NCBI GenBank assembly: GCA_964016885.1 | Contig: OZ024743.1 | Coordinates: 157,852,001-157,916,000 of the forward strand | Source: Eledone cirrhosa | Taxonomy: Eukaryota | Reading direction: 5' to 3' | Length of the DNA: 64,000 nucleotides | In this document: piece by piece, positions 4,727-57,265 of the stretch | Layout of the letters: each line of letters begins with the position of its first letter | Position numbering within the stretch: the first letter of the stretch is position 1 | Translations under genes and position numbers: made by a program | Notes under the pieces: model-generated | Told to the model about the DNA's origin: nothing | Database searches by the model: none | Seen by the model: only the letters and a program-made list of their open reading frames with translations

Positions 4727-4786
4727 TCTTTAGTAGTAAACGTAATGAAGGAGTAACCATTCGTCCTTGTATTATTATATTACCCT

Positions 4787-5172
4787 GGGGCGGTGGATTG
4801 GCAGTATCGGTAGAGAGTCGGACACCATGCTTTGAAGTATAGTGTCACGTCCCTTTATGATCTGAGTTCAAATCCCGCCGAGGTTGCCTTTCATCCTTAC
4901 GGGGTCGATAAAATAAAGTACCAGTAATGTACTGGGTAATTGCTGGCCTTGTGCCTAAAATAGAAACAATTATTATATTACCCTTGCGGTGGATTGGCAG
5001 TATCGGTAGAGGGTCGGACGCCATGCTTTGCAGCACAATTACGTCACTTTACGGACTGAGTTCAAATCTCGCCGAGGTTAACTTTGCCTTTCATCCTTAC
5101 GGGGTCGATAAAATAAAGTACCAGTAATGCACTGGGTAATTGCTGGCCTTGTGCCAAAAGTAGAAACAATTA
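4787..5172 (+). mobile_element. Two head-to-tail full-length tRNA-SINE copies (4787-4972, 4986-5172)
   Basis: A-box-like tggcagtatcgg, B box gagttcaaatcc/ctc, shared core and tail. Confidence 0.9.
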
Positions 5173-5290
5173 TTATATTACACTCTGTCTAGCTCTACAC
5201 CTCGATACTGACGTGAACCTAAACATCGAGTGCTCACCCGGGTGAACCTACAGTAACTTCGCGTTACACTCCCTGGATATACGTGTGTGT

Positions 5291-7270: not shown

Positions 7271-8520
7271 TCAGACCGTCTTACGAACTAGGAAGGTAAG
7301 ACTATTTTCCCAACATCTATTGTGCACATCCGCTCTGGCATATACACCCTTAGGTAAACACAGTACATTTGCACACACAATTTTGCCTCCACACAGATAC
7401 ACACCTACGTCCACACAATACAGGTACACACACGAGCATGACTCCACCTACATTTCACCTGCAGATCCCACAAGACCATATATGAAGCCAGCACCTAGAA
7501 TGACACCCAAATTTAGCGCTTACATAAACACCTGCGCTGACGGGGCCACATACAGAAGCAGCTCAATGTACACCAACCTGACCCACACATTCAACTCTTA
7601 AGCCATACAGGATTACTCCTAAATAGGTTCGCACCACAACACCAAACCAATAGTGGCGTTAAAACGACATCCCGACACACTTTATTTATATGAATATCTA
7701 ATTGCACGCGGGCAGTCGCCTCCCCAGTACAGACACTCAAGACAAACTTAGACCTCCTATACTGGATAATAAATAAATAATAATTATCCATACCAACACA
7801 CTTTTTCACAACAAATACAAAAATGTCATCATCAGTACCCTCAAACAACTGCTTACACACACACAAACCCACATACATACAAGTGTACTAAGTACTTTAT
7901 ATATACACACATACGCAAACACACCATCTACATACATACGCCTTTTGACTCCGTAGTACTAGGATTCATCTAAATTAAAACATTAACATTACTCCACCCG
8001 TAGATTAAGGTATTTTAAGTGTTCCGCAAAACAAACAGTAATAGTTACAACAATGACTCAAATTAAACACACTCTCTGGCATACATAGCCACCCACGACA
8101 ATCTTAGGCATACTATATGGCAGTACGAAAATATAATTATTTCAACACCACACACGCATACCTCTAGGACGCCAAAGCCCCACATACATACAAATATAAT
8201 AAGTGGCATATGCACACATATTCGCACCCACAACTCCACACTCCATAGTATTAGAACTCATCTAATTAAAATGTGTGTGTGTGTTCTTTTTAATGCATAC
8301 TTATATCCGTAATTTACGGTAAATTAAATTTTTGTTTAGCAAACAATAACAAATACAACAAAAAACTCGAATTTATACACCTACTAACTCGAAACTACCG
8401 ACTATATGATCTGTGATCTATTAAGATAACTAATAAATAGGTTCTTTCGTTGATAGATATATTCGATTTGATAGGGTGAAAGCAGCGATTCTTTGCTTAA
8501 ACTTTAATCTGTTATATATA

Positions 8521-9162
8521 TATATATATAAATATGTTATAAGGAGTCGTGGCCCGACGGCTGGGCTCTTGCCGTTTCAACAGGCAGACTGATTGCCAAA
8601 GGGCTCTCGGTTAACTGGCCGTATCACCAGGGGCGTGGCCAGTCCATATAAAGGTATAAGCTGTCCTTCCAAGTGTAAATTTTCCTTATAGGATGTTGCA
8701 GAAAAAGTTTTAGAATGAATTGATTGTATTTTATATATACAGATACACTTATACACATGTTTATATATTTTATATGTTTATGGAGTAGTTGTGTGTGTTG
8801 GTGTGTAGCTATGCAAGCGTGTATGTGTGTGTTTATGTGCGCATCTCTGTCTATATGTATGTTTCCTTAATTATGTGGGGATGGGTAAGATAGAAGCATT
8901 GTTAAGCAGATTTATGGGGTTGGGTGTAAATGTGTCTACTACTAGGCATATCGTTCACAATTTGCAGACACCAGAGCCAAGGAACTGACGCCTATAAGGA
9001 AAATTTACACTTGGAAGGACAGCTTATACCTTTATATGGACAGGCCACGCCCCTGGTGATACGGCCAGTTAACCGAGAGCCCTTTGGCAATCAGTCTTCC
9101 TGTTGAAACGGGAAGAGCCCAGCCGTCGGGCCACGACTCCTTATAACATATTTATATATATA
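8521..9162. mobile_element. Foldback insert in (TA)n: ~170 bp inverted arms (8521-8692 / 8991-9162) with ~300 bp spacer
   Basis: Arms differ at about 3 positions; both end at the same base next to (TA)n. Confidence 0.9.
9049..9131 (+). ncRNA. Type I HHR-like motif (A6G variant); mirror copy on minus at ~8551-8634
   Basis: GCCC-CUGGUGA-U-ACGG...CUGU-U-GAAAC-GG...CC-GUC-GGGC. Confidence 0.65.
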
Positions 9163-9477
9163 TTATGAAAATAAACCAAAGAAGCCTTCAATACATCAAA
9201 AGTCTTTATTAGCAACAATGTATGTACACTCCATATTCTTCTGTGTTTTTGGCTTGTATTGGCCGATAGTGCTTCTTATAGCTTTAATTGCCCTGATGAG
9301 TCCTTAATAGGACGAAACATTGTTGGCTAATAAAGACTTTTGATGTATTGAATGCTTCTTTGGTTTATTTTCATAATTCTTCGGCTCTGTTTAATTACAT
9401 TGAGCTATACCTTTACTGTCATTTCTATAATACGAAGAGGGTGTTTAACTCCAACACACTCTAGTATTTTAATTCGT
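9162..9477 (+). mobile_element. HHR element with a 5' inverted copy of its own post-ribozyme segment, in (TA)n
   Basis: 9162-9220 is the reverse complement of 9318-9377; ~100 bp tail follows; TA runs on both sides. Confidence 0.85.
9290..9327 (+). ncRNA. Canonical minimal type I hammerhead ribozyme
   Basis: GCC-CUGAUGA-GUCC UUAAUA GGAC-GAAAC-AUU-GUU-GGC; stem I extends further (cuuua/uaaag). Confidence 0.9.
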
Positions 9478-9494
9478 ATATATATATATATATA

Positions 9495-9690
9495 TAACAG
9501 ATTAAAGTTTAAGCAAAGAATCGCTGCTTTCACCCTTAACGGGATCTTCCGTTAAGGGTGAAAGCAGCGATTCTTTGCTTAAACTAATCTGTTATTTTAA
9601 TAAATATTTGCTCTAGGGTTCTTATATATTTGATATATATTTATCCTTATCGAGCCCTCTTTGGATTTTATTCTTCATATTTATTATTAT
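9495..9690. mobile_element. Foldback insert (~46 bp arms plus tail); family also at 8472-8514, 41780-41830 and 56725-57265
   Basis: Arm taacagattaaagtttaagcaaagaatcgctgctttcaccc and its reverse complement; tail shared with 56826-56920. Confidence 0.85.
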
Positions 9691-23117: not shown

Positions 23118-23160
23118 ACGCTGTACTAGTTTCAAGCTTATTAGCTATCGTCAGCAACGT
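23118..23160 (-). ncRNA. Minimal type I HHR, intact core
   Basis: ACGUUG-CUGACGA-U-AGCU AAUA AGCU-U-GAAAC-UA-GUA-CAGCGU. Confidence 0.88.
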
Positions 23161-25765: not shown

Positions 25766-26287
25766 TGTGTGTGTGTGTGCGTGCAAGTATATAAATATGT
25801 GTATGTGTGAGCGTATGTGTGTGTCTATACTTTTCTGCAACTATTCCTTCTTCAGATTGTTTAAACGATCACCAGATTTTAATAGTCATAAATATGTTTA
25901 GCATTTTTACTGTATGGATTATGAAGCTGTCCCAATTCACTTGGTACATATGTTGCTCCGAGAATAATTGATATAGAGTAATGGAATATTTTTAGATACT
26001 GGATCTTTAAATTTCTGAACAATAGTCTGGACATATCTCCTTTACCTTTCATTTTTAACCATGTTAGTGTCATTTAATTACTCCAACAGAACAGAGTTAT
26101 ATTTTGTGATGTCAAATAACAATATCGCATACATTGCTCTTTAATTTGTTTGCTGTTCCTCAAATATTTTCCACTGGTCTTGATTTTTTCGTGTGTGTGT
26201 GTATATATATAGAGAGAGAGATACTTGACGGACATGATTTTTGACAGCGGTAAGAAATTTGTTTTCTTATATCAACGTTTAATGGGC

Positions 26288-26415
26288 TTCCACTGATGAT
26301 TTATAAGTGCCCACCTAAATATATTCTTACATGAGAATATATATTAGGCTTCTACATAAACTGGAAACATTCTCCCAAACCTGTAGAAAACTTATAATGA
26401 AACAATTGTTTGGAA
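26288..26415 (+). ncRNA. Type I HHR with ~100 nt stem II domain, inside repeat 26222-26600
   Basis: UUCCA-CUGAUGA-U-UUAUAAG...CUUAUAA-U-GAAAC-AAUU-GUU-UGGAA; homologous to 46578-46700. Confidence 0.88.
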
Positions 26416-27649
26416 AGATACTTTAACTTTAATTATATCTCATAAAATAATACAACTGGTTTTTCCACATTATACATATTGTTAGCACCCCAAACACTTA
26501 AATTGGGTTTATATTTTAATATAACCTAATGTTTGTTGAGTGAGATGGTTACCAGTCAGAGTTTAGCTTTAAACTATCTCTGTTATTGTATTAAATATAT
26601 ATATATATTTATATTGTCGAAGCGTTTTTTTCTGTATGTTTACTTTGTTACTTTTAATTCATTTCGTTTGTTATCCCACCAAGCCTCATACCTCATATGT
26701 ATTCTTTTGGTTTGCATATATATATCATATATGATTACATTCTGAAGAGGTGGTTTGCATTCTTTACATATTGTCAGGTGTTGTTTGTTGTCTTTTGTGA
26801 AAAATATATTTAATGGGGATTTATATTTCCTGGTCGCACGGTGGCAACCTTTAAGGTTCGATGTGACAAACTTGGTTGTATACAATACATGGCTTTTGCA
26901 TGGTTTGATTCTAAGTGTCTGGAGTTGTTGTTGGTTTGGAGAGGCGGGGAAATGTTTTGTTTTGTTTTTTCAGTTATCTATGCATGATCTTTTTGGTGAT
27001 CTTTTTCTTTGTTTTTTTCATTTTCGCATTGCGCTTGAGAGCATTTGCTAAAGTCCCTTGATTTGTGGTAATTTAATTGGACACCAATTCCGGATATATC
27101 ATTTCATATTAGAATGATAGAAGATTGTGTGATAGCCTTGATCAATTCATTTTTTATGCTTAATATTTAATTATTCGTTTTAATTACGTGAGCGTCGTTT
27201 TTTTTAAATTTAAACAGATTTCAGTTGTGATTATATTTAAGGTTGTTTACAGCTTGAACGATTTATATATATTTAATACTGTTTGGGTTTCACCAGTGCT
27301 TGGGCATACATAATGTATTATTAATGTACAAATACTCACTGATATTTTCTGGAATGTTGTTCGGTTCATTTGAATTCTGTTTACGTGTGTATGTGTGTAT
27401 GTATGTATGTATGTATGTGTGTGTGTATGAATGTATATATGTATTATGTTTGTATGTATGTATGTATTTATGTATTTATGTATTTATGCAATCATTTATG
27501 TAGGTATGTACGTACTTAAATATGTTTGTATGTCCGTACGTACATACGTATGAACGTATGTGTGTATGCATATATGTACGCATGTATGTACGCATGTATG
27601 TATGTATGTATGTATGTATGTATGTATGTATGTATGTATGTATGTATGT

Positions 27650-28921: not shown

Positions 28922-29680
28922 TCATCCCTTGAATCGCAAGAATGTTTTGCAAATTTTGAAGGTGCCAGCTATCGCAGCCATTTGTAGGCTATGAATTAGG
29001 GAGCTGCACTTTTTGTCCGCAAATCCAAGTTCAGTCATACTTTGGTCTAAGCGGGTTGGTATATAACCCGTAGCTCCAATAATGATGGGTATGAAGCTAA
29101 AGGTGTATCTTGGATACTGGATTTGTAAACTCCTCATCAATGGTCCGTAGATGTCCTCCTTCTCCTGTATTTTTCTGACAACGTTTACATCAAGTGGGCA
29201 GCTGATCTCTACAACAGAACACGTTTTCAATGTGTGGTCCCAAACAACAATATCAGGCCGGTTGTGCTTTAATTTGGTGGCAGTTTTTATTTTCAGGTTC
29301 CACCAGTATTCCTTAGTGCCATCTGTCTCAATATATTCCTCCTCGTTTGTTGTTAATTTTGTTTTCCGAAGTGCGTTCCAGATGGTTCTAGCTATCCCAT
29401 CATGTCTCATGGGGAGGTAGTAGCGAGATGACATTCTTTCGCAGCTGGCAACAATGTGGCTTACATCCTCGATCTTTGTTTTACATAGCCTACATTGATT
29501 GTCAGCTGCTGGCCCTCCTCTTTTGTGCAGCAGATATTTGGTAGGGAGTTCTTGTTCCTGTATTGCATAGAGATATCCCTCAAGGTGTGATGTCATAAAC
29601 TTGTCGGAACTCCATGCCGGGCTTTTTGAGTGGTTTATCCCCTCTATGGTCTGTGTTGTACGCCTCAAGTATCCATGCAC
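28922..29680 (-). pseudogene. R4-type ORF, C-terminal part: CCHC knuckle plus restriction-like endonuclease
   Basis: AIQEQ, CRLC..EDVSHIVASC, RHD, RPDIVVWD, EISCP, K..Y; separated from the RT by a frameshift or stop near 29714. Confidence 0.9.
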
Positions 29681-29713
29681 AACTTTTTCTGTAAATTGGT
29701 CAATTTTTTTATC

Positions 29714-31166
29714 TTATTTGAACATTGAATAGGATCTTCCGATTTCTCTGGGTGAGAGATTTATATCAGGCTTTATTCCATATCTCTCCTCCAGATCAGT
29801 CGCTATTCTAATGATATTTTTTTGTTCATGCTCATAAACCTGGGCAAGATGGTTGCCAACCTTTTTCCTCTGTTGAAGGTGTTGCTTCAGTGTTACTATC
29901 CGGGTCTCATATGTTGTTAATATTGATTTTAGACCCCGGCCACCTTCCTTGCGTGAGAAGTATAGCCTATCCACATCACCATTGATGTTAAAGTTCCCAG
30001 TAACACTAAGAAGTTTTCGAGTTCTAACATCCATCTCACTTAGTTCTTGCAATGACCAGTTCAGCAGGCCAAATGTTGGCGTTAGAATTGGCACAGCATA
30101 GGTATTGTGGGCAATGTATTTGTTGTATGCTGACAGTTCTGATGACCATATTTTCTTTACTCTTCTGAGGTATTCAGTTCTGGTTCTCTCCTTATTTATG
30201 GCTCCATCATATCTGACATTCTCATCCTGTCCAAGATATCTGTAGTTGTCACTTGATTGCAGAGGTTGTATTGTCAGGCCCTTCATATCTAGATTTCTAG
30301 AGGAGGGAACAGCTCTTCCACGTTTTACTGCCAAATATGCACACTTGGACTCACCAAATTTCATTTTGATGTTAGTTGAAAATTGTGTAATGAGGTCCAA
30401 TTGTTTCTTGATGTCATTGATATTTGGCCCATACAACTTCAGGTCATCAACAAAGAAAAGATGGGAGATACTTCTGGGCCCACTTCTTTGTCCACCTTGT
30501 TTCCTGAGTAGGTAAGATAGTGGATTCCGTGAGAGAACGAAGAGTAGCACTGACAAGCTATTACCCTGAAAGATGCCCTTCTGGTAATGTATCTTATCAG
30601 TCTTAACTTGCTCCTTCTCACCTCTAAGGATCAAATTGGTGTACCAGTTCTTGTTCAGGCGTTCAACAGCAGCTACCAATGGTTGTGGGACTTTAGCTAA
30701 CTGTAAAGCCTTAATAATCCACCCATGAGGTACACTATCGAATGCTTTTTGATAGTCCAGCCACACCACAGTCATGTTTCTGCGATTCTTTGTTGTTTTT
30801 TCCTGAATCATTTTGTTGGTTAGTAGGTGATCTATGCAACCCCACACCTCCCTCTTTCCACCAGCTTGCTCAGGTGTTATGATGTTGTTGGTAGCACAGT
30901 GATCCTGTAAGAACAGGTTAAGGCACCCAGTATATAATTTATACATGATGTTTTGGCAGGCTATTGGGCGGTAATTTTTTAGCAAGGGTGGTTTGGCTAT
31001 TTTTGGGAATGAGGAGAGTAGTGGCAGTTGATAACCATCTGGGCAGTTCTTGTGTGCCTTTAATGGTTTCTGTAAACAGCCGTATGAGATCTTCCCGATA
31101 GAAAGTGAAATTCTTCAACCAGTATCCTATAATGAGGTCTGGGCCTGGCGATTTCCTATTCGACAT
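29714..31166 (-). pseudogene. R4-type ORF, reverse transcriptase
   Basis: KSPGPD, NYRPIAC, EQAG, WLDYQKAFDSVPH, GIFQGNSLS, HLFFVDDLKLY, YRYLG; frameshift near 30985. Confidence 0.92.
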
Positions 31167-31322
31167 TTTCTGTAGAGCTGTTTCCAGTATTGACCCATCT
31201 ATGTCATATTGTTTTATCTGAACATGTTGGCAGTAGTCCTGTTCCAGTTCTTTTAGCCAATTAGCTTGTCTGTTGAATCCGTCATCCGTTTCCCATACAG
31301 ATCTCCAGTAGCTCTCAACCTG

Positions 31323-32414
31323 TTATTTTGAAGGGGTGTCGTTTACAGGGATTGAGCTTTTGCCACCGAAGCTGCGATAAACTGATTTAGGATCTCTGGC
31401 AAACAATCTATTTAGCACTTGTCGTTTATGTGCTGTTAACTTATATTTTAGTCTTTCTGTTGTAGCTGTGAGTTGTTGTTTCAACTGGTGTAATTTTGAG
31501 TTCAAAGTTTTAAATTTTGTATCTCCAAATCGTCTCTCTAACTTTTTCTTTAGGTCTTCCTGGTGTCGTGTGAAGTTGCTCTCTATGTTGCATTTCATAA
31601 CGACTGCGATGTGTAAGATACTTCGTCTCAGGGACAAAATTTTGGTTTTTAAATTTCGCATCCACGCTGGTTCAGGCTTTCTGTTTGTATCTTGATTGCG
31701 TGGTTTTAGATGTGTGTTATATGATAGCAATGTGACAGCTGAAACATATAACAAAACATTAAGCGTTTCAAATGTCGTTTCTACACCTTTAGATCGTATA
31801 GCCTTCAGATAATTGCCAGCTATTTCGTTCACCGCTTCCAATTCCAATTTAGTGGGTTCTTTACTGATTCTGGTGTTGTATGGTCTGTCACTCACATTAA
31901 GGCTGTGTATCTCTTGAAACATATCGTTCCATATCACTTGTAGGGTGTCCACAAGTGTTTGGTGCTCTGTTTGTTCAGCCTCGTTGTTGATGTGGTGACA
32001 ATTACTACTAGAGTTAGCTGACCTTTCTCGCTGTTCTTCAGTGGAAGTGGGATGGATTTCAGCAGAATTGTTGGTGAGCTGTTCACTGTTAGATTTAGCT
32101 GGCCATTCTCTTTGTCTGTTAGTGGAGGTGGGGTGGTTGTCTACAAGGGCTGTATTTGTAGTATCACTCAATTCCGTTAGATGTATCAATTTACATCTAA
32201 TGATACGTTTTGCCTGTTTATTTAAATGCTTTGGAGAAAAGTCTAATTCTGGGTGTTTGGAGTTCCATAAAGTGTTTAGCCTTTGCATAAAACCGAACTT
32301 TTGGGCTTCAGATTGTTTGTATGCTTCATATAATAGTTTGTTAAGCTCGTAGCTCCATTGTATACAACGGTTGTAGTTGCGATTTGGTCGAAGGAGACTT
32401 GTACTTTTTGCCAT
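31323..32414 (-). pseudogene. R4-type ORF, N-terminal region
   Basis: 363 aa from ATG, colinear with the RT; contains PAWMRNL and NRLF..DPK segments typical upstream of R4 RT; premature stop at 31323. Confidence 0.75.
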
Positions 32415-33074
32415 GATGAGTTCGTCTATTCACTAATATTTCGTATTTATTTTTCAAAATAGTCGATGATCTTCTTTAAAAGTTTCGACAAAGTTCTGTC
32501 AGAATCAAATTTAAAGTTATTCACAGCCTGGGTAATATTTCTTTTCAGTTAGTTTTTAATTCTACAACTGTGTTTTAAACGTTGTTCTTGAATCGTTTGA
32601 ATCGAGAACAAAAAGAACCGTTACTTAGTATATTCCTTTATGAATGTAATATAGTATAACAACGCTGTATTTATATGTTAAAGTTTATGTATCATTCACA
32701 TAAATAGGTGTTCTACAACTTATTCACAACATATTCACAGTTCAAACACTTATGTTTTTTGTTTCTGAATCGAAAACGTTACTTGTATATTTCTTTATAA
32801 ATGTAATATAACAACGTTGCATTTATATGTTAAAGTATATGTATCGTTCATATATCATAAGTGTATGTATCGTTCATATAAATAGGTGTTTTACAACACA
32901 CTTACAGTTCAAACACTTATGTAGAATTATTGTATGTAATCTTACCGTGTAATGTAGCTCAACTTTTTCCAATATATGGTATGTTGCCTTCATGTAAGCT
33001 GTAATTACACACGTCCGATTATCGGGCACTGACCACAACGGCCGCCATTATATGTATGTATGTATGTATGTATG

Positions 33075-34515: not shown

Positions 34516-35640
34516 TTAGATGCAAAATATTTGGAATCTTTTACATATTTTTACTGTTCCATTAATTGATTGTACCTGTAATTTCCTAACTAGTTGTGTT
34601 CTTTCTGTTCCTGTGAACCCCAGCTTCTCAAGATTTGTATTGAGGCAGTTACTAACATCCCCCAGTGTCCCAATAATCACAGGCATAAATCTGATGGTGT
34701 AATCAGGGTGGAGTATCTGCAGATTTCTCATCAGTTCTGCATAAATATTCTCCTTTTCGCTAATCTTTGATATTATATTGGTATCTGCTGGACAGCTAAC
34801 TTCCACTGCTGTGCATGCCTTCTTTTCCCTGTCCCTTATCATAATATCTGGTCTGTTGTGCCTACATTTTATTAGGGTTTTTTCTGGAACATCGCACCAG
34901 TACACTTTCATATTATGTATATGTATGTCTTCCACATTGCTGGAGCTTTTAATGTGTTTATTATCGGGGCTATCTTTTCTACGGATTGTATTGTACAGTG
35001 TCTTGCTACTACATCATGCCTCATAGGTAGATAGTACCGCGATGACATCTTTGGACAGCTGCTTATGACATGAGTGACATCTTCGATGTTAATTCTGCAG
35101 AGTCTGCACTTGTTATCGCATCCAGGTGTTTTGCCTGCTTCCTTATCTCTTTTGTGAATCAGGTATTTCGTGTTCTTTTCCTGTTCCTGGATTGCAAAAG
35201 CGTATCTTTCAAAGTGGGAGCCTATATAGCGGTTGTTGGTCCAAGATAGACTACTTTTTTATCTATATTACTCTCACTCTGGAGCTTCCTGGCAACATAT
35301 CCATGCATGATTTTTTTTACTGATAAGCATGCAGTTTTTCATCCATGGATTCATTGCGGTACTGCTGAGCAACTTCCCTGGGTGTGAGTTTTTGATTATC
35401 ACACAGGAATACTTCCCGAGTAGTTCCTTCCCAACTCTCATGACCATATCTGTTTCATGCAGATAGACTTGCTCGAGAGACGGGCTCCTATGCTTCGAGG
35501 TTCGTAGAGGTTTATCGGAGGGATATGATGTGACATTCAAATGTTGTCTGGACGGATGTTAGGCCTCTGCCTCCCTGCTTACATTTCAAGTAAAGGCGTT
35601 CTATGTCACTGTTGATTTCGTTCTATGTCACTGTTGATTT
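34516..35640 (-). mobile_element. Older R4-type element 3' fragment
   Basis: CRLC..EDVTHVISSC, HNRPDIMI, EVSCPAD, KENIY. Confidence 0.85.
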
Positions 35641-46132: not shown

Positions 46133-46146
46133 TATATATATATATA

Positions 46147-46873
46147 GTGAGTTGGAAATTGGTCGGAGTATCACTAATAGCTTTCTCCGTTTATGTAATT
46201 ATGTATTATACTCTTGGTGCAACAGACATGAACTATCTCGATATAAGGTATGACTCTCTTTGTTTATTTTTTTATATGAATATTGATTGTTTTGTTCCTG
46301 TATCTCATGTCTCTTATTTTGCCTGAGAAAATATCTCTATGTGTCCTTAAACAGTACACACATATATTTATTTTTTCATATCCAATTGAGTTCTTCGCAC
46401 GAGGCTTGAATTCTTGTCAGAGTTCAATGACCTGCGTGTATATTATTTTTTGGCGGTAGCCTTCTCCTCCCATTTTTCAGGACAGTGTGAGATTTTCTTT
46501 CAAACTGCTGGACTTACAGCTTAACAATCGCTAAATATTGATATTGATTTAGTTATTAATATAAATATTATTGGGCACCCACTGAAGATTTATAAGAGTC
46601 CACTGGCATAAGAATCCATTGATCTTACACAAACTTCTACATAACTTGGTATAATTTCACCCACCATGTAGAAATCTTACAATGAAACGATTCGTTTGGG
46701 AAATGAGTTATTTAATATATCTCATATAAAATAATACAGCCAATTATCCACACAATACAATATAGTTAGCACCCCAAACGTTTAATTGGGAATATACTCC
46801 GGTATTTCCTAATGTTTGTTGAGTGAGTTGGAAATTGGTCGGAGTATTGCTAATAGCTTTCTCCGTTTATGTA
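46147..46873 (+). mobile_element. Terminally redundant HHR element (retrozyme-like), monomer ~676 nt, in (TA)n
   Basis: gtgagttggaaattggtcggagtat...ctccgtttatgtaa at 46147 and 46823; one HHR; no credible ORF. Confidence 0.8.
46578..46700 (+). ncRNA. Type I HHR with long stem II domain
   Basis: CCCA-CUGAAGA-U-UUAUAAGA...UCUUACAA-U-GAAAC-GAUUC-GUU-UGGG; covaries with 26288-26415. Confidence 0.88.
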
Positions 46874-47639
46874 AGTATGTATATATATATATATATAAAA
46901 GCATATTACCCGACTGCTTGTTTTGGTACGTCCACCAATAATTCACTGAATCACCTTCACTATATATATATATTTGAAATAGGCAAATTTGAATATATGT
47001 GAATAGGCAAATGGATCACGTGGTATATGGTTTAAGCTATATTCTGATCTAAGCTATGGCTGTGTCTATTTTTGAAGTGGTATGAATTTGGTTATGAGTC
47101 GTCTGTCTATATTATCCTCTGGATCAAAAGACAAGACTTGTCAATCTTGCTTTATGACCCTCGGAACACATGATCGAAGCTTCAGAATAACAAGACTGAC
47201 TCAGCCTTAATAAAAAAAAAAATACTAATGTCTTCTATGGTATTGAGTACTCATGCTCGTAACCGTCAATTGTTCAATAATATGGATTATTTCCTTCACA
47301 TAAACGGGTGTTACATACAATCATATATCAAAATGTACTGTAGTTTACTTGCACCTTTTATATGTGCAAATATTTTTTTCTTTATCTTTTTAACGTTTAT
47401 TTTTACCGACAATTTGTTTGGTTCTAGGGCTGTAAAGAAAGGGTATTCAAACAGAAATTTCTTTTGTTATTCTAGTTAACCTTTTTCACAACCAATCACC
47501 TTTCGAATTTCAAGAATGTCTTCATATTTTTATAGTTAACCATATGGTGATCATCTGCATTATATGTATTGTCGAGCTGCATTCTTTCCTTACGAATGCA
47601 GCTCGTTATTATTGCATGTGTGAATCTACGTTTTGACTC

Positions 47640-49004: not shown

Positions 49005-51900
49005 AATCCGTATGGTGAGCAAATGGGGTCCCACGTGGTGTCCTCCCCATAGCCCCGGCAGACAGGATGGAGAAGGTTTTTCCCTGGGGGATGGTAAGGT
49101 CATACCGTCTGACCTTTTGCCATCCCCTCGGACCAGCTCCTCTGGCTCGAGCTGGGAGGGGAAGCCTGCAGCGTCCAAGGCTTGCTTAATGACCTCGTTG
49201 AGGGCAGCATGACGTGGAAGGCGGCCGGCACTGGGAAAGCGGGTGGAGTCCGAATGAGTCCACGGTGGATCCACAGCGACATTTATGTGGCTCGCAGATC
49301 CGGAGTCCAAGCCTCAAAAAACGCCGATGCGCAGGCTATCGATATCCAGCTGCGTGCCAGTGGAGAAGGAGGGCAAGGCATGGAACCAGGCATCCCTATG
49401 GGGTTTGGAGGCCACGCAGTGACAGGCAAGGCGGTGCTGGTCGAGCTGGCGCGTGAGTCTGTCTGAGGCCACGCTGCACTGGATGGCATTCCATATGCTT
49501 TGGGGGGACTTGAGGTCAGCAGGGGGAGAAGGAGGAGGAACGTCTACCGGGTTAAGTCCCAGCCTGTCCAACGTCTCACAGGCGACCTCACGTTCCCTGA
49601 ACACAGAGGGTTCTATTGTGTTTTGGAGAAACCTGCTAACGAGGACGCGGCATGAGGTTACCGATGAAAGAAACGCCGGGAAGGCCAGCGAGATCGGGGA
49701 TCGGAGGCCAAGGCCGCCAAATCTGACAGGTAAAGTGGCCTGTTGCCATACAATGTCGGCAAACCTGACGTTGCATATCTCTTCAACTGCCACTCGGATA
49801 CAAGTATCGTGGTCAGCGAGGAGAGATGCGTGGCTGTAGCACGGAGTGCTGCGAAGGGTGTAGAGGAGCTTCGGCATGGCGAAGCAGTTCCTCAACAGGA
49901 AGAGAGCTGGGTGACCGTCGATCAAGCCCAGTCGGCTCGTGAGGGTCTAGAGTTGTTGGAGCCTAGACCTGATGGTGGAGCGGATGCTCGGCAAATGGAT
50001 CGGTGACCCGAGGATGAGGATATCCTCTTTGGAGGTCATCTGTACCTCGTGGAGAATGGACCACACGTCCAAGACGGAGGCCGCAAAGCTCTCAGCATCA
50101 TAGCTGACATTCACCACCTCCGACTTGGACGAGTTGACCTGGAGGCCGATTCCCGCCAGGGCAGGAACCACCGATTGAAGGTCATGGCAGACAGTCTCCA
50201 CATGCCCGCCCAGCGTAGCATCATCCAGGTACTAAACGTTGAGAGGAGCCGTGATACTCCGGGAAATGTGGTTTATACCAAGGGCAAACAGGAGGGGACC
50301 CAGAGGGTCGCCATGTTGGACCCCAGTGGCCGAAGGTATGACCGTATCAGCAGCAAGGAGCATGCTCGGGGCTCCATATGACAAGTAAGCCAGTGGGTAG
50401 GCGGATGGGGCTCGGGTGAGGCATTAAGCAGATGGTCCCGACGTATGCAGTTAAAAGCATTCCTCATGTCAAGCTTGACAATGAGGTGCATGGAGTCTCT
50501 GGTTTCCTGTTCCGATGGGCAGCTATTGAAGAACTGCCTGGTTGCATGTGCGGCCCCCTCACAGCCACCGGACATGTCGACAACCAGTTTCACTGGACTG
50601 AACTCCTCACCCAGTTCAGGTGTTATGGACCTGCAGACCACCTTAGCAGCCAGCCTCCGGAAGACATTGCCCACAGCGTTGGGGCGTATCCCGCCCTCTT
50701 TCTTCCTGAGAGCGGTCAGGCTAGCCGAAAAAAATAGGCCTCGGGCGTAAGGATCCAGGGCACCATGGATAAGCCTATTGGTAAGTCCCACAATTGCACT
50801 CAGAAGGTTGCGCCCGGCCTCAGCGGAGAGGGGGGATAGCAACTCCATGAGGTGGCCTGGTTGGAGACCATCAGCACCTCCGCTGCTACTAGCTGGGAAG
50901 GACTTGACGGCAGACATGATGTCTGCGTCGGAAGCCACAAGGAGCAGGTGGGGGTATGGGTTGGAGGTCAGCGGGTGGCTCAGGGTGCTTGAGTCACAGG
51001 GCAGCCAGAACATCCTCGGTGTGTTGGAGGACAGTGTCCTCTGAGGCAACCACTCTGACTGTGGCCTTGACATCACCCATGATGATTTTGGCGCTTACAC
51101 GGTCACGCAACCGCTTGGAGCTGGCCTAAGGGGTGGAGGATTGGAGACACCCAAGAGCAGGGCTTGTGGCGTCTTTCAGCACGCTTGGAATGGGCGTTTA
51201 CCCATTGGCCTTGATAAAAGCTGCTTTCGACCGGCCGCCTAGGTCAGTGCCACAGCTGGGGAGGCCGAGGGTGAGTGGGGCGAAATAGAAGAGGCGCTCT
51301 CAGTCGCTGGCTCGATTGGAGTCCAGAGCACTCTCGATCGAGGAAGTGAGGGCATCGGCTACCGGCACCCGGGCAGCTCTCGGGATCCTGAACGTAATCT
51401 TCCGGAGCCCCCTGGGCTGAGTGATGTTGACCGGCGAGGCTTGGGTATCAGGCAAGCTCGCTGTCTCATCTGGTGGAGTGCCAGATGGCCTTGACTGGGC
51501 AGACGATGGGAAGAGACAGTTTCTGCATCTCCACGCTGCGAGGGCACTGGAAACTCGACGCGTCAAGCCAACACAGGTGAGGTGGTGGAAGCAGCCGCAC
51601 CCCGAACAATTACGGCCCCTCTTCCGTCTGTTCGTGGTGCTGCAAGTGCTGCAGATACCGACTGGTGGGGATGGAGGATGGGGCGTGGAGCCGGGGACTG
51701 GAGCACCAAGTGGCATCAGGGGTGAGTGGCTGGTTGTCACCAGTGTAGGTGCTAGGCACAACTGCACGTGGGTGGAAGAGAAAGTGTTGGTATGGGTGAG
51801 GCCTCATAGCTCACCTACATCGGATATGGAGGCGACAGAAGACAAGATAAAAGAGAAGGGGGTTGCATGGAGGGGGACACACATGAAAGTAGAAAGTTAG
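49005..51900 (-). mobile_element. Degraded near full-length CRE-type non-LTR retrotransposon (PHD finger, RT, truncated RLE)
   Basis: SGGADGL.P.HL, KKEGGIRP.AVG..RRL, KLDMRNAFN, GVQHGDPLGP, YLDD, LPVRFGGLGL, RH, GKRSDG; GC-rich relative to host; many frameshifts. Confidence 0.88.
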
Positions 51901-56349: not shown

Positions 56350-56724
56350 GACGCGTTTTGGAATGTGCATTGGTCAGTCAAAGACTTGTTTTGGTGTAAA
56401 CAGGAAGCAGCGGTTTATGGGGTGTGTCTGCATGGACGACCCGATACTAGTTTATAGTGACGGTAAAGACATTTCATGTTTTTGTCAAAGAATTTAAAAA
56501 AAGGTTGTGGATAGTATTTGTAAGATGTAGAAATTCAACAACATAGACAGACAAACGTAGACGTACAGTCGCGCACAGACATGTATACATATCCATACGC
56601 CCAAACTCAGGAGCCCGCGCACGCATATAAGTGTTTACATCCACACACGTCCATAGATCACACATATATACACACACCCACTCTCATATATATATATATA
56701 CACATATATATATATTTATTAACA

Positions 56725-57265
56725 TAACAGATTAAAGTTTAAGCAAAGAATCGCTGCTTTCACCCTTAACGGGGTCTTCTGAAAGGGTGAAAGCAGCGAT
56801 TCTTTGCTTAAACTAATCTGTTATTTTAATAAATATTTGCTCTATGGTTCTTATATATTTGATATATATTTTTCCTTATCTAGCCCACTTTGGATTTTAG
56901 TCTTCAAATTTATTATTATTACTACTGGGTAACCTGGAATTTGGTATTTCTCTTCACAAATAATATTGCGAAACGGTTATATCAAAGACCGTCTGGGTGA
57001 TGGTAGTTACCACAATATTGGTTTGTATTTATTTTTCTTAATTTGTTCTTAAATTGAGTCCAGCAAACCCTATTGTCTGTAGTTAGTATTTTTTTCACCT
57101 TAGCGATTTTGGTCCATTACGATTTGAACACACACATATATATATGTCTGAGTTCGTTTTTTCCTTTTTTGTTCAGTTATATACGGCTCGGAAAAGCCTT
57201 TTTTCTAGAACTAATTTACTGTAATGAGACTATTTTGAGTTTCTAACTCAATACAAGCTTTTGAG
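56725..57265. mobile_element. Foldback insert in (TA)n, same family as 9495-9690, with longer tail
   Basis: Same arms and tail start; tail contains GAAAC-GGU...ACC-GUC (56970-56993). Confidence 0.8.

Follow-up and report, generated by a model that had tools for sequence, protein, structure and literature searches.

Type I hammerhead motifs with an oversized, branched stem II in a Penelope-like repeat of Eledone cirrhosa

The window, the whole stretch of 64,000 nucleotides of Eledone cirrhosa DNA that was analysed, contains two motifs that can be assigned with considerable confidence to the type I hammerheads and that are predicted from their sequence to cleave. Their stem II arm greatly exceeds in size that of the published examples found, and the branched fold of the insert is conserved across the subfamilies of the host repeat through paired changes; selection on this insert for RNA structure is very likely. 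Judged by its anatomy, the repeat is a non-coding, non-autonomous Penelope-like element, i.e. a non-LTR retrozyme. The overall reading that we favour, and consider likely, is that the hammerheads cut the RNA of the repeat as dimers and that the branched insert docks or times the catalytic core. A preliminary description of the window had located both motifs correctly, and every pairing quoted in it is present in the sequence; the high-copy non-autonomous Penelope-like host repeat, the hairpin IIa, the GGGC/GCCC complementarity and the self-complementary stem III had been overlooked.

Table 1. Positions in the window of the two repeat copies and of the predicted hammerhead features within them.
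Feature	Position	Strand	Basis or remark
Subfamily A copy, 5'-truncated, ~0.4 unit	26212-26601	+	3' end runs into (TA)n
Hammerhead motif A, type I	26288-26415	+	Sequence, coordinates, fold; predicted cut after 26410 (GUU)
Motif A stem I	26288-26292/26411-26415	+	UUCCA/UGGAA
Motif A core	CUGAUGA 26293-26299; GAAA 26399-26402; GUU 26408-26410	+	Sequence
Motif A stem III palindrome ACAAUUGU	26402-26409	+	Stem III ACA/UGU
Motif A stem II domain, 99 nt	26300-26398	+	Fold
Motif A stem II, closing three-way junction	26300-26308/26390-26398	+	Fold
Motif A inner hairpin IIa	26314-26348	+	Fold; both-side change in 7/10 pairs
Motif A inner hairpin IIb	26350-26388	+	7 bp, internal loop, apical hairpin of 3 bp
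GGGC (26284-26287) and GCCC (26309-26312)	26284-26312	+	Candidate pseudoknot or competing helix
Subfamily B copy, ~1.1 units	46146-46887	+	(TA)n at both ends
Hammerhead motif B, type I, damaged copy	46578-46700	+	Predicted cut after 46696
Motif B stem I	46578-46581/46697-46700	+	CCCA/UGGG
Motif B core	CUGAAGA 46582-46588; GUU 46694-46696	+	Stem III ACG/CGU
Motif B stem II domain, 95 nt	46589-46683	+	Sequence

Motif A is arranged as UUCCA-CUGAUGA-(99 nt)-GAAA-CAAUU-GUU-UGGAA and motif B as CCCA-CUGAAGA-(95 nt)-GAAA-CGAUUC-GUU-UGGG, in agreement with the stem II domain of about 100 nt proposed initially. Both were recovered in the window by the repeat scan, and both have the CUGANGA and GAAA core and an NUH triad. 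Stems I to III are paired, with both ends of the motif in stem I, and covary across the family, stem I alone being non-significant on the tree. The damage to copy B consists of an A-C mismatch in stem II, GUCC instead of GCCC and a broken first hairpin; the folding z-score of the insert is -6.62 for copy A, -1.43 for copy B and -3.7 for a sister of copy B. It had been anticipated that so large an insertion would be missed by standard descriptors, and this was borne out, as neither window copy matched the Rfam covariance models (including RF00163) at E<=1 and the core spacer limit given in the available part of PMC8557442 is 7-17 nt.

The claim of a selected fold had been based on covariation between the two window copies. 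These provide two compensatory pairs, a non-significant number, and two copies are too few to show selection, so further copies were sampled across the genome, and it is the resulting family alignment that upholds the claim. A core-plus-spacer pattern gave 2,344 genome matches and 1 in the reversed control, i.e. at least 2,344 motifs. A second pattern, requiring GGC and GCC, gave 48 matches against 0 in its control and revealed more subfamilies, and DNA searches seeded on the new subfamilies added 30 copies of subfamily G and about 21 distinct copies of subfamily H. The alignment (A2) comprises 26 copies from about ten subfamilies, picked by hand with intact copies favoured from 188 distinct filtered motifs and the H copies. 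The core shows little or no variation in these 26 copies, the subfamilies have no triads other than GUU, GUA and GUC, and the insert measures 93-99 nt; two shortened inserts exist as single copies (L100 and L101).

When no structure was supplied, RNAalifold recovered stems I to III as well as the hairpin IIa from the 26 copies, with 17 of 26 predicted pairs compensated. Under the named structure 86.8% of the cells of A2 are paired, compared with 75.5% after shuffling, and the covariation score is 0.386 versus 0.203 shuffled (0/500), with slid controls at or below 0.112. Changes on both sides were seen in 3/4 pairs of stem I, 6/8 of stem II, 7/10 of IIa, 1/7 of IIb and 1/3 of stem III, and the plain count of such pairs (19/36) is not above shuffles (44/500). 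As many changes fall on one deep branch, events were counted on the tree and compared with columns matched for number of changes, by a parsimony procedure that is rough and has arbitrary ties. Five events were counted in stem II (0.30 expected) and four in IIa (0.41 expected; p about 0.001), one in stem III (0.03 expected; p 0.03) and one in stem I (0.16 expected; p 0.15, non-significant). A larger family alignment had been named at the outset as the check on this fold, and in it stem II and IIa covary beyond the tree-aware null. One pair of stem II, followed through the 30 best copies of subfamily B, is A-U in 15, A-C in 7, G-C in 3 and G-U in 2, with 3 unread, so pairing is not clean everywhere.

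Folded alone, the insert forms a three-way junction in 20 of the 26 copies, and z is -3 or lower in 19. The segment 26314-26348, previously counted among diverging loops, is in fact a second hairpin, IIa, which covaries strongly. The inner UUCUACA/UGUAGAA helix is conserved, as had been described, but its letters are identical in copies A and B, which is evidence of conservation and not of covariation. For IIb covariation is weak in A2, where G and H are out of register; by eye, F shows a single change from U-A to C-G, and H one from A-U to G-C.

Stem III remains self-complementary despite changes of its letters (CAAUUG, CGAUCG, CGGCCG and GACGUC), and its self-duplex is predicted at -6.4 to -14.7 kcal/mol. 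A self-complementary stem III marks hammerheads that cut as dimers (review PMC6765202), and the dimer-cutting Penelope hammerheads likewise have one, according to the available text of PMC4209133. The GUU-containing palindrome of 12 nt can also trap the GAAA core in an inactive duplex. The sequence GGGC, immediately 5' of stem I, is complementary to GCCC in the junction, and each was found in 46 of 54 motifs returned by a pattern demanding neither. In subfamily G, GGG is present in 26/30 copies and CCC in 21/30; in the old subfamily H they are poorly kept (10/21 and 13/21). The GGGC/GCCC pairing is formed in 74% of cases in A2 with no real compensatory change (one cell of 104), and patterns barring the known letters, used to seek covariants, returned only unrelated families and no variants. 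In the nested folding of copy A the GGGC/GCCC helix has a probability of 0.83 versus 0.16 for stem II, and the active monomer fold of this copy is not the predicted ground state. Because the folding program cannot form pseudoknots, the pairing fits an off state or a docking contact; docking contacts by Watson-Crick pairing between the stem I and stem II sides are described in the part of PMC3088659 available.

The window regions A and B align at about 74% over 270 bp past the first part of the insert, and this extent indicates homology of a repeat and not of isolated RNA. Compared over 630 bp, the monomers of A and B show about 65% similarity. In the 3.0-Gb genome there were 1,562 first-look candidates for subfamily A and 3,750 for subfamily B, and the 40 scored for each had 96-98% and 94-96% identity, respectively; the window copy of A shares about 97% identity with the 39 next-best of its 40. 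Copies have a fixed 3' end in (TA)n and variable 5' ends, and the start of a copy is often an incomplete duplicate of its 3' end; the subfamily B copy of the window is such a partial tandem, with 46146-46210 repeated at 46822-46887. Tandems account for 17 of 83 subfamily A insertions, and an inverted pair of copies was found at one locus (L283). In tandem copies 701-1009 bp separate one hammerhead from the next, which gives a monomer of about 700-1010 bp. An element-borne ORF was sought in the repeat copies and none was found. The (TA)n target, fixed 3' end, 5' truncation and partial tandem and inverted copies are those of Penelope-like elements of the Hydra clade, and the non-coding unit with one type I hammerhead and head-to-tail copies is that of a non-LTR retrozyme. 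The same anatomy is described, in the parts of these sources available, for EN+ Penelope-like elements (PMC8557442) and for non-LTR retrozymes (PMC7229834; bioRxiv 10.64898/2026.07.22.740005).

No autonomous element sharing sequence with the repeat was found among 319 loci, mostly with 1.5-kb flanks and drawn from a genome that was sampled, not exhausted, so the Hydra machinery is proposed from the target and the anatomy. In the A-F monomers the 0-190 nt after the cut are predicted to form a structured 3' region that closes with a short hairpin immediately ahead of the fixed 3' end and is possibly the start signal for reverse transcription. A metagenome scan of 120 stretches returned none with BLASTN similarity to the repeat. 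One recurring metagenome set (34 loci) was rejected as chance, since it runs antisense within a gene that we take, from its motif, to be a putative fungal esterase. A Naiad origin of the repeat was also rejected: the order in the Naiad 3' end printed in the PMC8557442 supplement is GAAAC, then CUGAUGA, and none of four 10-letter words taken from the repeat was found in the available text of that supplement, in which line breaks could hide one. Naiad_Ovul is listed there with a half core, and the 3' ends of the octopus Naiad consensus entries have GAAAC ahead of CUGAUGA with complementary arms, i.e. a re-ordered hammerhead; Naiad elements are reported to be without a hammerhead.

As an indirect test of cutting, 5' ends were mapped for 83 subfamily A insertions, taken in genome order from the first contig, with tandems placed by their upstream end, modulo one unit. 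Removal of six (one duplicate, two censored and three joined to another copy) left 77. Twenty of these 77 end in the 76 nt past the cut versus 4/57 in the 76 nt before it (p 0.006; post hoc), and 10/70 end at an ATATA 11 nt past the cut versus 11/333 for ten further TA sites of short length (p 0.001; this comparison omits one 13-nt TA run, where 3/14 end). The cluster past the cut coincides with the ATATA microhomology and is confounded with it, two other 76-nt bins lose equally or more (11/30 and 4/11), and only 1 of the 83 copies ends exactly at the cut; the clustering is suggestive only as a sign of cleavage. As 57 of the 77 copies extend past the first cut site, most templates would have been circular or uncut. 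In the subfamily A monomer (L019), 5'-end clusters 2 and 3, at about 380-460 and 690-760 nt upstream of the cut, coincide with the two copies of an internal duplication and are possibly transcription starts.

Patterns with spacers of 40-70, 80-105 and 112-142 nt gave 4,038, 7,831 and 6,850 matches in the genome, and 77, 27 and 154 in the controls. These patterns demanded a palindromic stem III and counted inverted and tandem copies separately, and the 80-105 nt pattern barred most of the family of the window repeat itself. The total is more than 18,000 matches versus 258, all beyond the published spacer limit, and because unrelated families have spacers of 40-142 nt, a long stem II is general in this genome. 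Family K is a full-length Hydra-type element with a 90-nt-spacer hammerhead in both terminal repeats. The RT-GIY-YIG frame between them, broken once in the copy read, stops 417 bp ahead of the hammerhead in 6/6 loci and, at locus L331, contains RWK-like, DKT, CxCx5C, CxxC and CxH motifs, with RT followed by GIY-YIG. Families J, K and M carry Hydra-clade motifs, K being placed by motifs read against the description in the available part of PMC8557442; comparison of the Penelope ORFs with Pfam gave no match above the cut-off. The hammerhead of family J (spacer 103-116 nt) lies on the same strand as, and downstream of, open frames of 630-765 aa in 3/9 loci. The inserts of J and K are long irregular rods without a three-way junction, those of other families differ again, and RNAalifold recovered an inner helix alone from ten M-family copies. 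A short tandem duplication lengthened one J subfamily, which multiplied to thousands of copies. Many J copies stand back to back in pairs (e.g. 26896612-26896887 of G000:C1), their orientation changing no more than a few bases upstream of the core of the hammerhead.

Other features were observed in the window. A short type I hammerhead at 9287-9331 scored 29.1 bits against RF00163, below the cut-off of 34; it sits in an inverted repeat (9162-9377), and the palindrome that comes next (9482-9607) has further occurrences at 56705-56919 and 8473-8682. At 23154 (-) and 23473 (+) stand two short hammerhead-like motifs, almost identical and inverted to one another, which are probably the inverted ends of a Penelope element. 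Broken frames with reverse-transcriptase and restriction-like endonuclease motifs, all on the minus strand (28922-32429, 34516-35013 and 49314-51803), belong to non-LTR retrotransposons, and two tandem 200-bp units with tRNA-like boxes (4771-5181) are probably a SINE.

In the literature covered, from which Lunse et al. 2017 and Song and Miller 2004 (either of which may describe long or pseudoknotted stem II variants) and the supplements of the 2026 preprint are missing, no natural hammerhead with a branched stem II of about 95 nt was found; the scope also took in the available parts of PMC10085705, PMC6155905 and PMC3185516. The term 'long helix II' is used of 6-8 bp in viral type I hammerheads (PMC13725137). 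The repeat is like the non-LTR retrozymes of animals, as the available parts of PMC7229834 and bioRxiv 10.64898/2026.07.22.740005 describe them, in being non-coding and low-GC with one type I hammerhead per unit and head-to-tail copies, and such retrozymes have been proposed to be non-autonomous Penelope-like derivatives (PMC7229834; Li, Clavereau and Pollet 2026). Its monomer of 700-1010 bp compares with 170-400 nt (Cervera and de la Pena 2020, PMC7229834) and 51-972 bp (bioRxiv 10.64898/2026.07.22.740005), and unlike the known non-LTR retrozymes it consists mostly of dispersed partial copies and has a branched stem II of 93-99 nt instead of a 4-bp stem and loop. Cleavage, and expression as linear and circular monomer RNA, belong to the functional definition of the known systems, whereas the class is recognised here from DNA anatomy.

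Likeness to the Hydra-clade hammerheads (Craig et al. 2021, PMC8557442, as far as available) extends to the (TA)n targets, the partial tandems, a type I motif near the 3' end and a short palindromic stem III, often accompanied by a bulged base before stem II. In contrast to the window repeat, all Hydra and Repbase rows in the available File S2 of that paper have a stem II of 3-7 bp and a loop 2 of 3-10 nt, the longest loop 2 there being one of 35 nt in a spike-moss element marked as deviating; unlike the elements described, the window repeat lacks an ORF, and no autonomous element linked to it in sequence was found among the 319 loci. The minimal Penelope hammerheads (Cervera and de la Pena 2014, PMC4209133, available text) are similar in having a helix II of 7-8 bp, a helix I of 4-5 bp, an unpaired base 5' of stem II and a palindromic helix III, and are reported to cleave as dimers at low rate. 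Their helix II ends in a loop, whereas here it opens into a three-way junction, and unlike in them G10.1-C11.1 is often U-U or A-U. By analogy, the motif of the repeat resembles a dimeric Penelope-type hammerhead within a retrozyme. Complementarity between the stem I and stem II sides is shared with pseudoknotted hammerheads (Perreault et al. 2011, PMC3088659), in which it was predicted in about 40% of examples; the pseudoknots in the available part of that work are backed by compensatory mutants, whereas the pairing here is conserved only and one strand lies in a multibranch junction. The discontinuous Clec2 hammerhead (PMC2950038) is likewise natural and hidden from pattern searches by a large insertion, but the search described in its available text allowed insertions in loop 1 or loop 3 and not in stem II, and it lies in mammalian mRNA and not in a mobile repeat.

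In the mechanism that we propose, where transcription, cleavage and circularisation are all inferred, along with the helper protein and what the insert does, a transcript would run through a partial-tandem copy, and two hammerheads 700-1000 nt apart would swap strands of stem III, which is self-complementary, and cleave after GUH to give a monomer. A host ligase would circularise the monomer, or the uncut multimer would be used, and an RT/GIY-YIG protein, supplied by an autonomous Penelope-like element that most likely belongs to the Hydra clade, would copy the RNA into (TA)n, with its start at a constant position some 190 nt past the cut. Within the insert, IIa and IIb would fold first and keep stem II closed, and the unpaired GCCC would pair with GGGC, as an early inactive hairpin and later as a pseudoknot aligning stems I and II; that this is the job of the insert is put forward tentatively, as a possibility a little short of probable. 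A wider proposal, and a rather doubtful one, is that Hydra-clade elements and their retrozyme parasites carry hidden oversized hammerheads (stem II up to about 116 nt, more than 18,000 missed by standard models), and that here the junction and pseudoknot form a switch, which would stay off until the dimer or the protein of the element is present.

It is somewhat unlikely, although a serious alternative, that the insert is a tolerated expansion, folded only to close stem II and to spare the core from mispairing. The abundance of all three spacer classes, the differing shapes and lengths of the J and K rods and of the inserts of other families, the tandem duplication that spread within J and the single-copy shortened inserts agree with such an expansion, and inserts of other shapes in unrelated families allow it. 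Aptamer domains engineered into stem II leave hammerheads active, which is also in its favour. Nevertheless, a length of 93-99 nt, the junction geometry and the unpaired CCC are kept despite changed helix letters, which exceeds what closure of stem II needs. We consider it unlikely that the insert is a binding or packaging platform for a borrowed Penelope RT/EN protein, coupling cleavage to particle assembly: a non-autonomous element must attract such a protein, a long stem II is present in autonomous Hydra-type elements here, and an Anolis Penelope hammerhead cuts only when the protein of its element is added (PMC11167929, available part), but the junction shares no sequence or shape with the J, K and M inserts, the start of copying is about 190 nt distant and the partner protein is putative.

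Less probable still is that the motif cuts barely or not at all and that the fold serves reverse transcription or RNA stability, with the core kept for another reason. The predicted active fold is sparsely populated, most copies extend past the cut site, and catalytic mutants of the Anolis Penelope left insertion in vitro unaffected (PMC11167929, available part); against this, the core is near-invariant in 26 copies, and the triad and the stem III palindrome vary only as cutting permits. That the insert is a spliceosomal intron, the removal of which would leave an ordinary hammerhead, is very improbable. Penelope elements keep introns, one of which overlaps the hammerhead in Drosophila virilis (PMC4209133, available text), a GU..AG occurs within the insert of copy A, and most of the insert of family J lies between GUAUGU and YAG (e.g. 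L495:5877-6010), so that splicing would give a short-stem hammerhead in some J subfamilies. However, most copies of B, E, F, G and H lack this GU, the insert shows the covariation of a structured RNA, and splicing would delete G12 in one J subfamily. No joint skipping the insert was found for subfamily A or family J in the contigs of four runs of unrecorded kind; a tandem joint in these contigs is also present in the genome, and contigs cannot show ends.

The role of Penelope hammerheads, which their low rates and protein dependence make a live question, is directly testable in a motif of 130 nt whose covarying domain can be removed and which occurs naturally in about ten subfamily versions. 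Hammerhead surveys limit the length of stem II, so counts of Penelope elements and retrozymes in such genomes are underestimated. Engineered stem II aptazymes would have an equivalent in nature if the pseudoknot switch is true.
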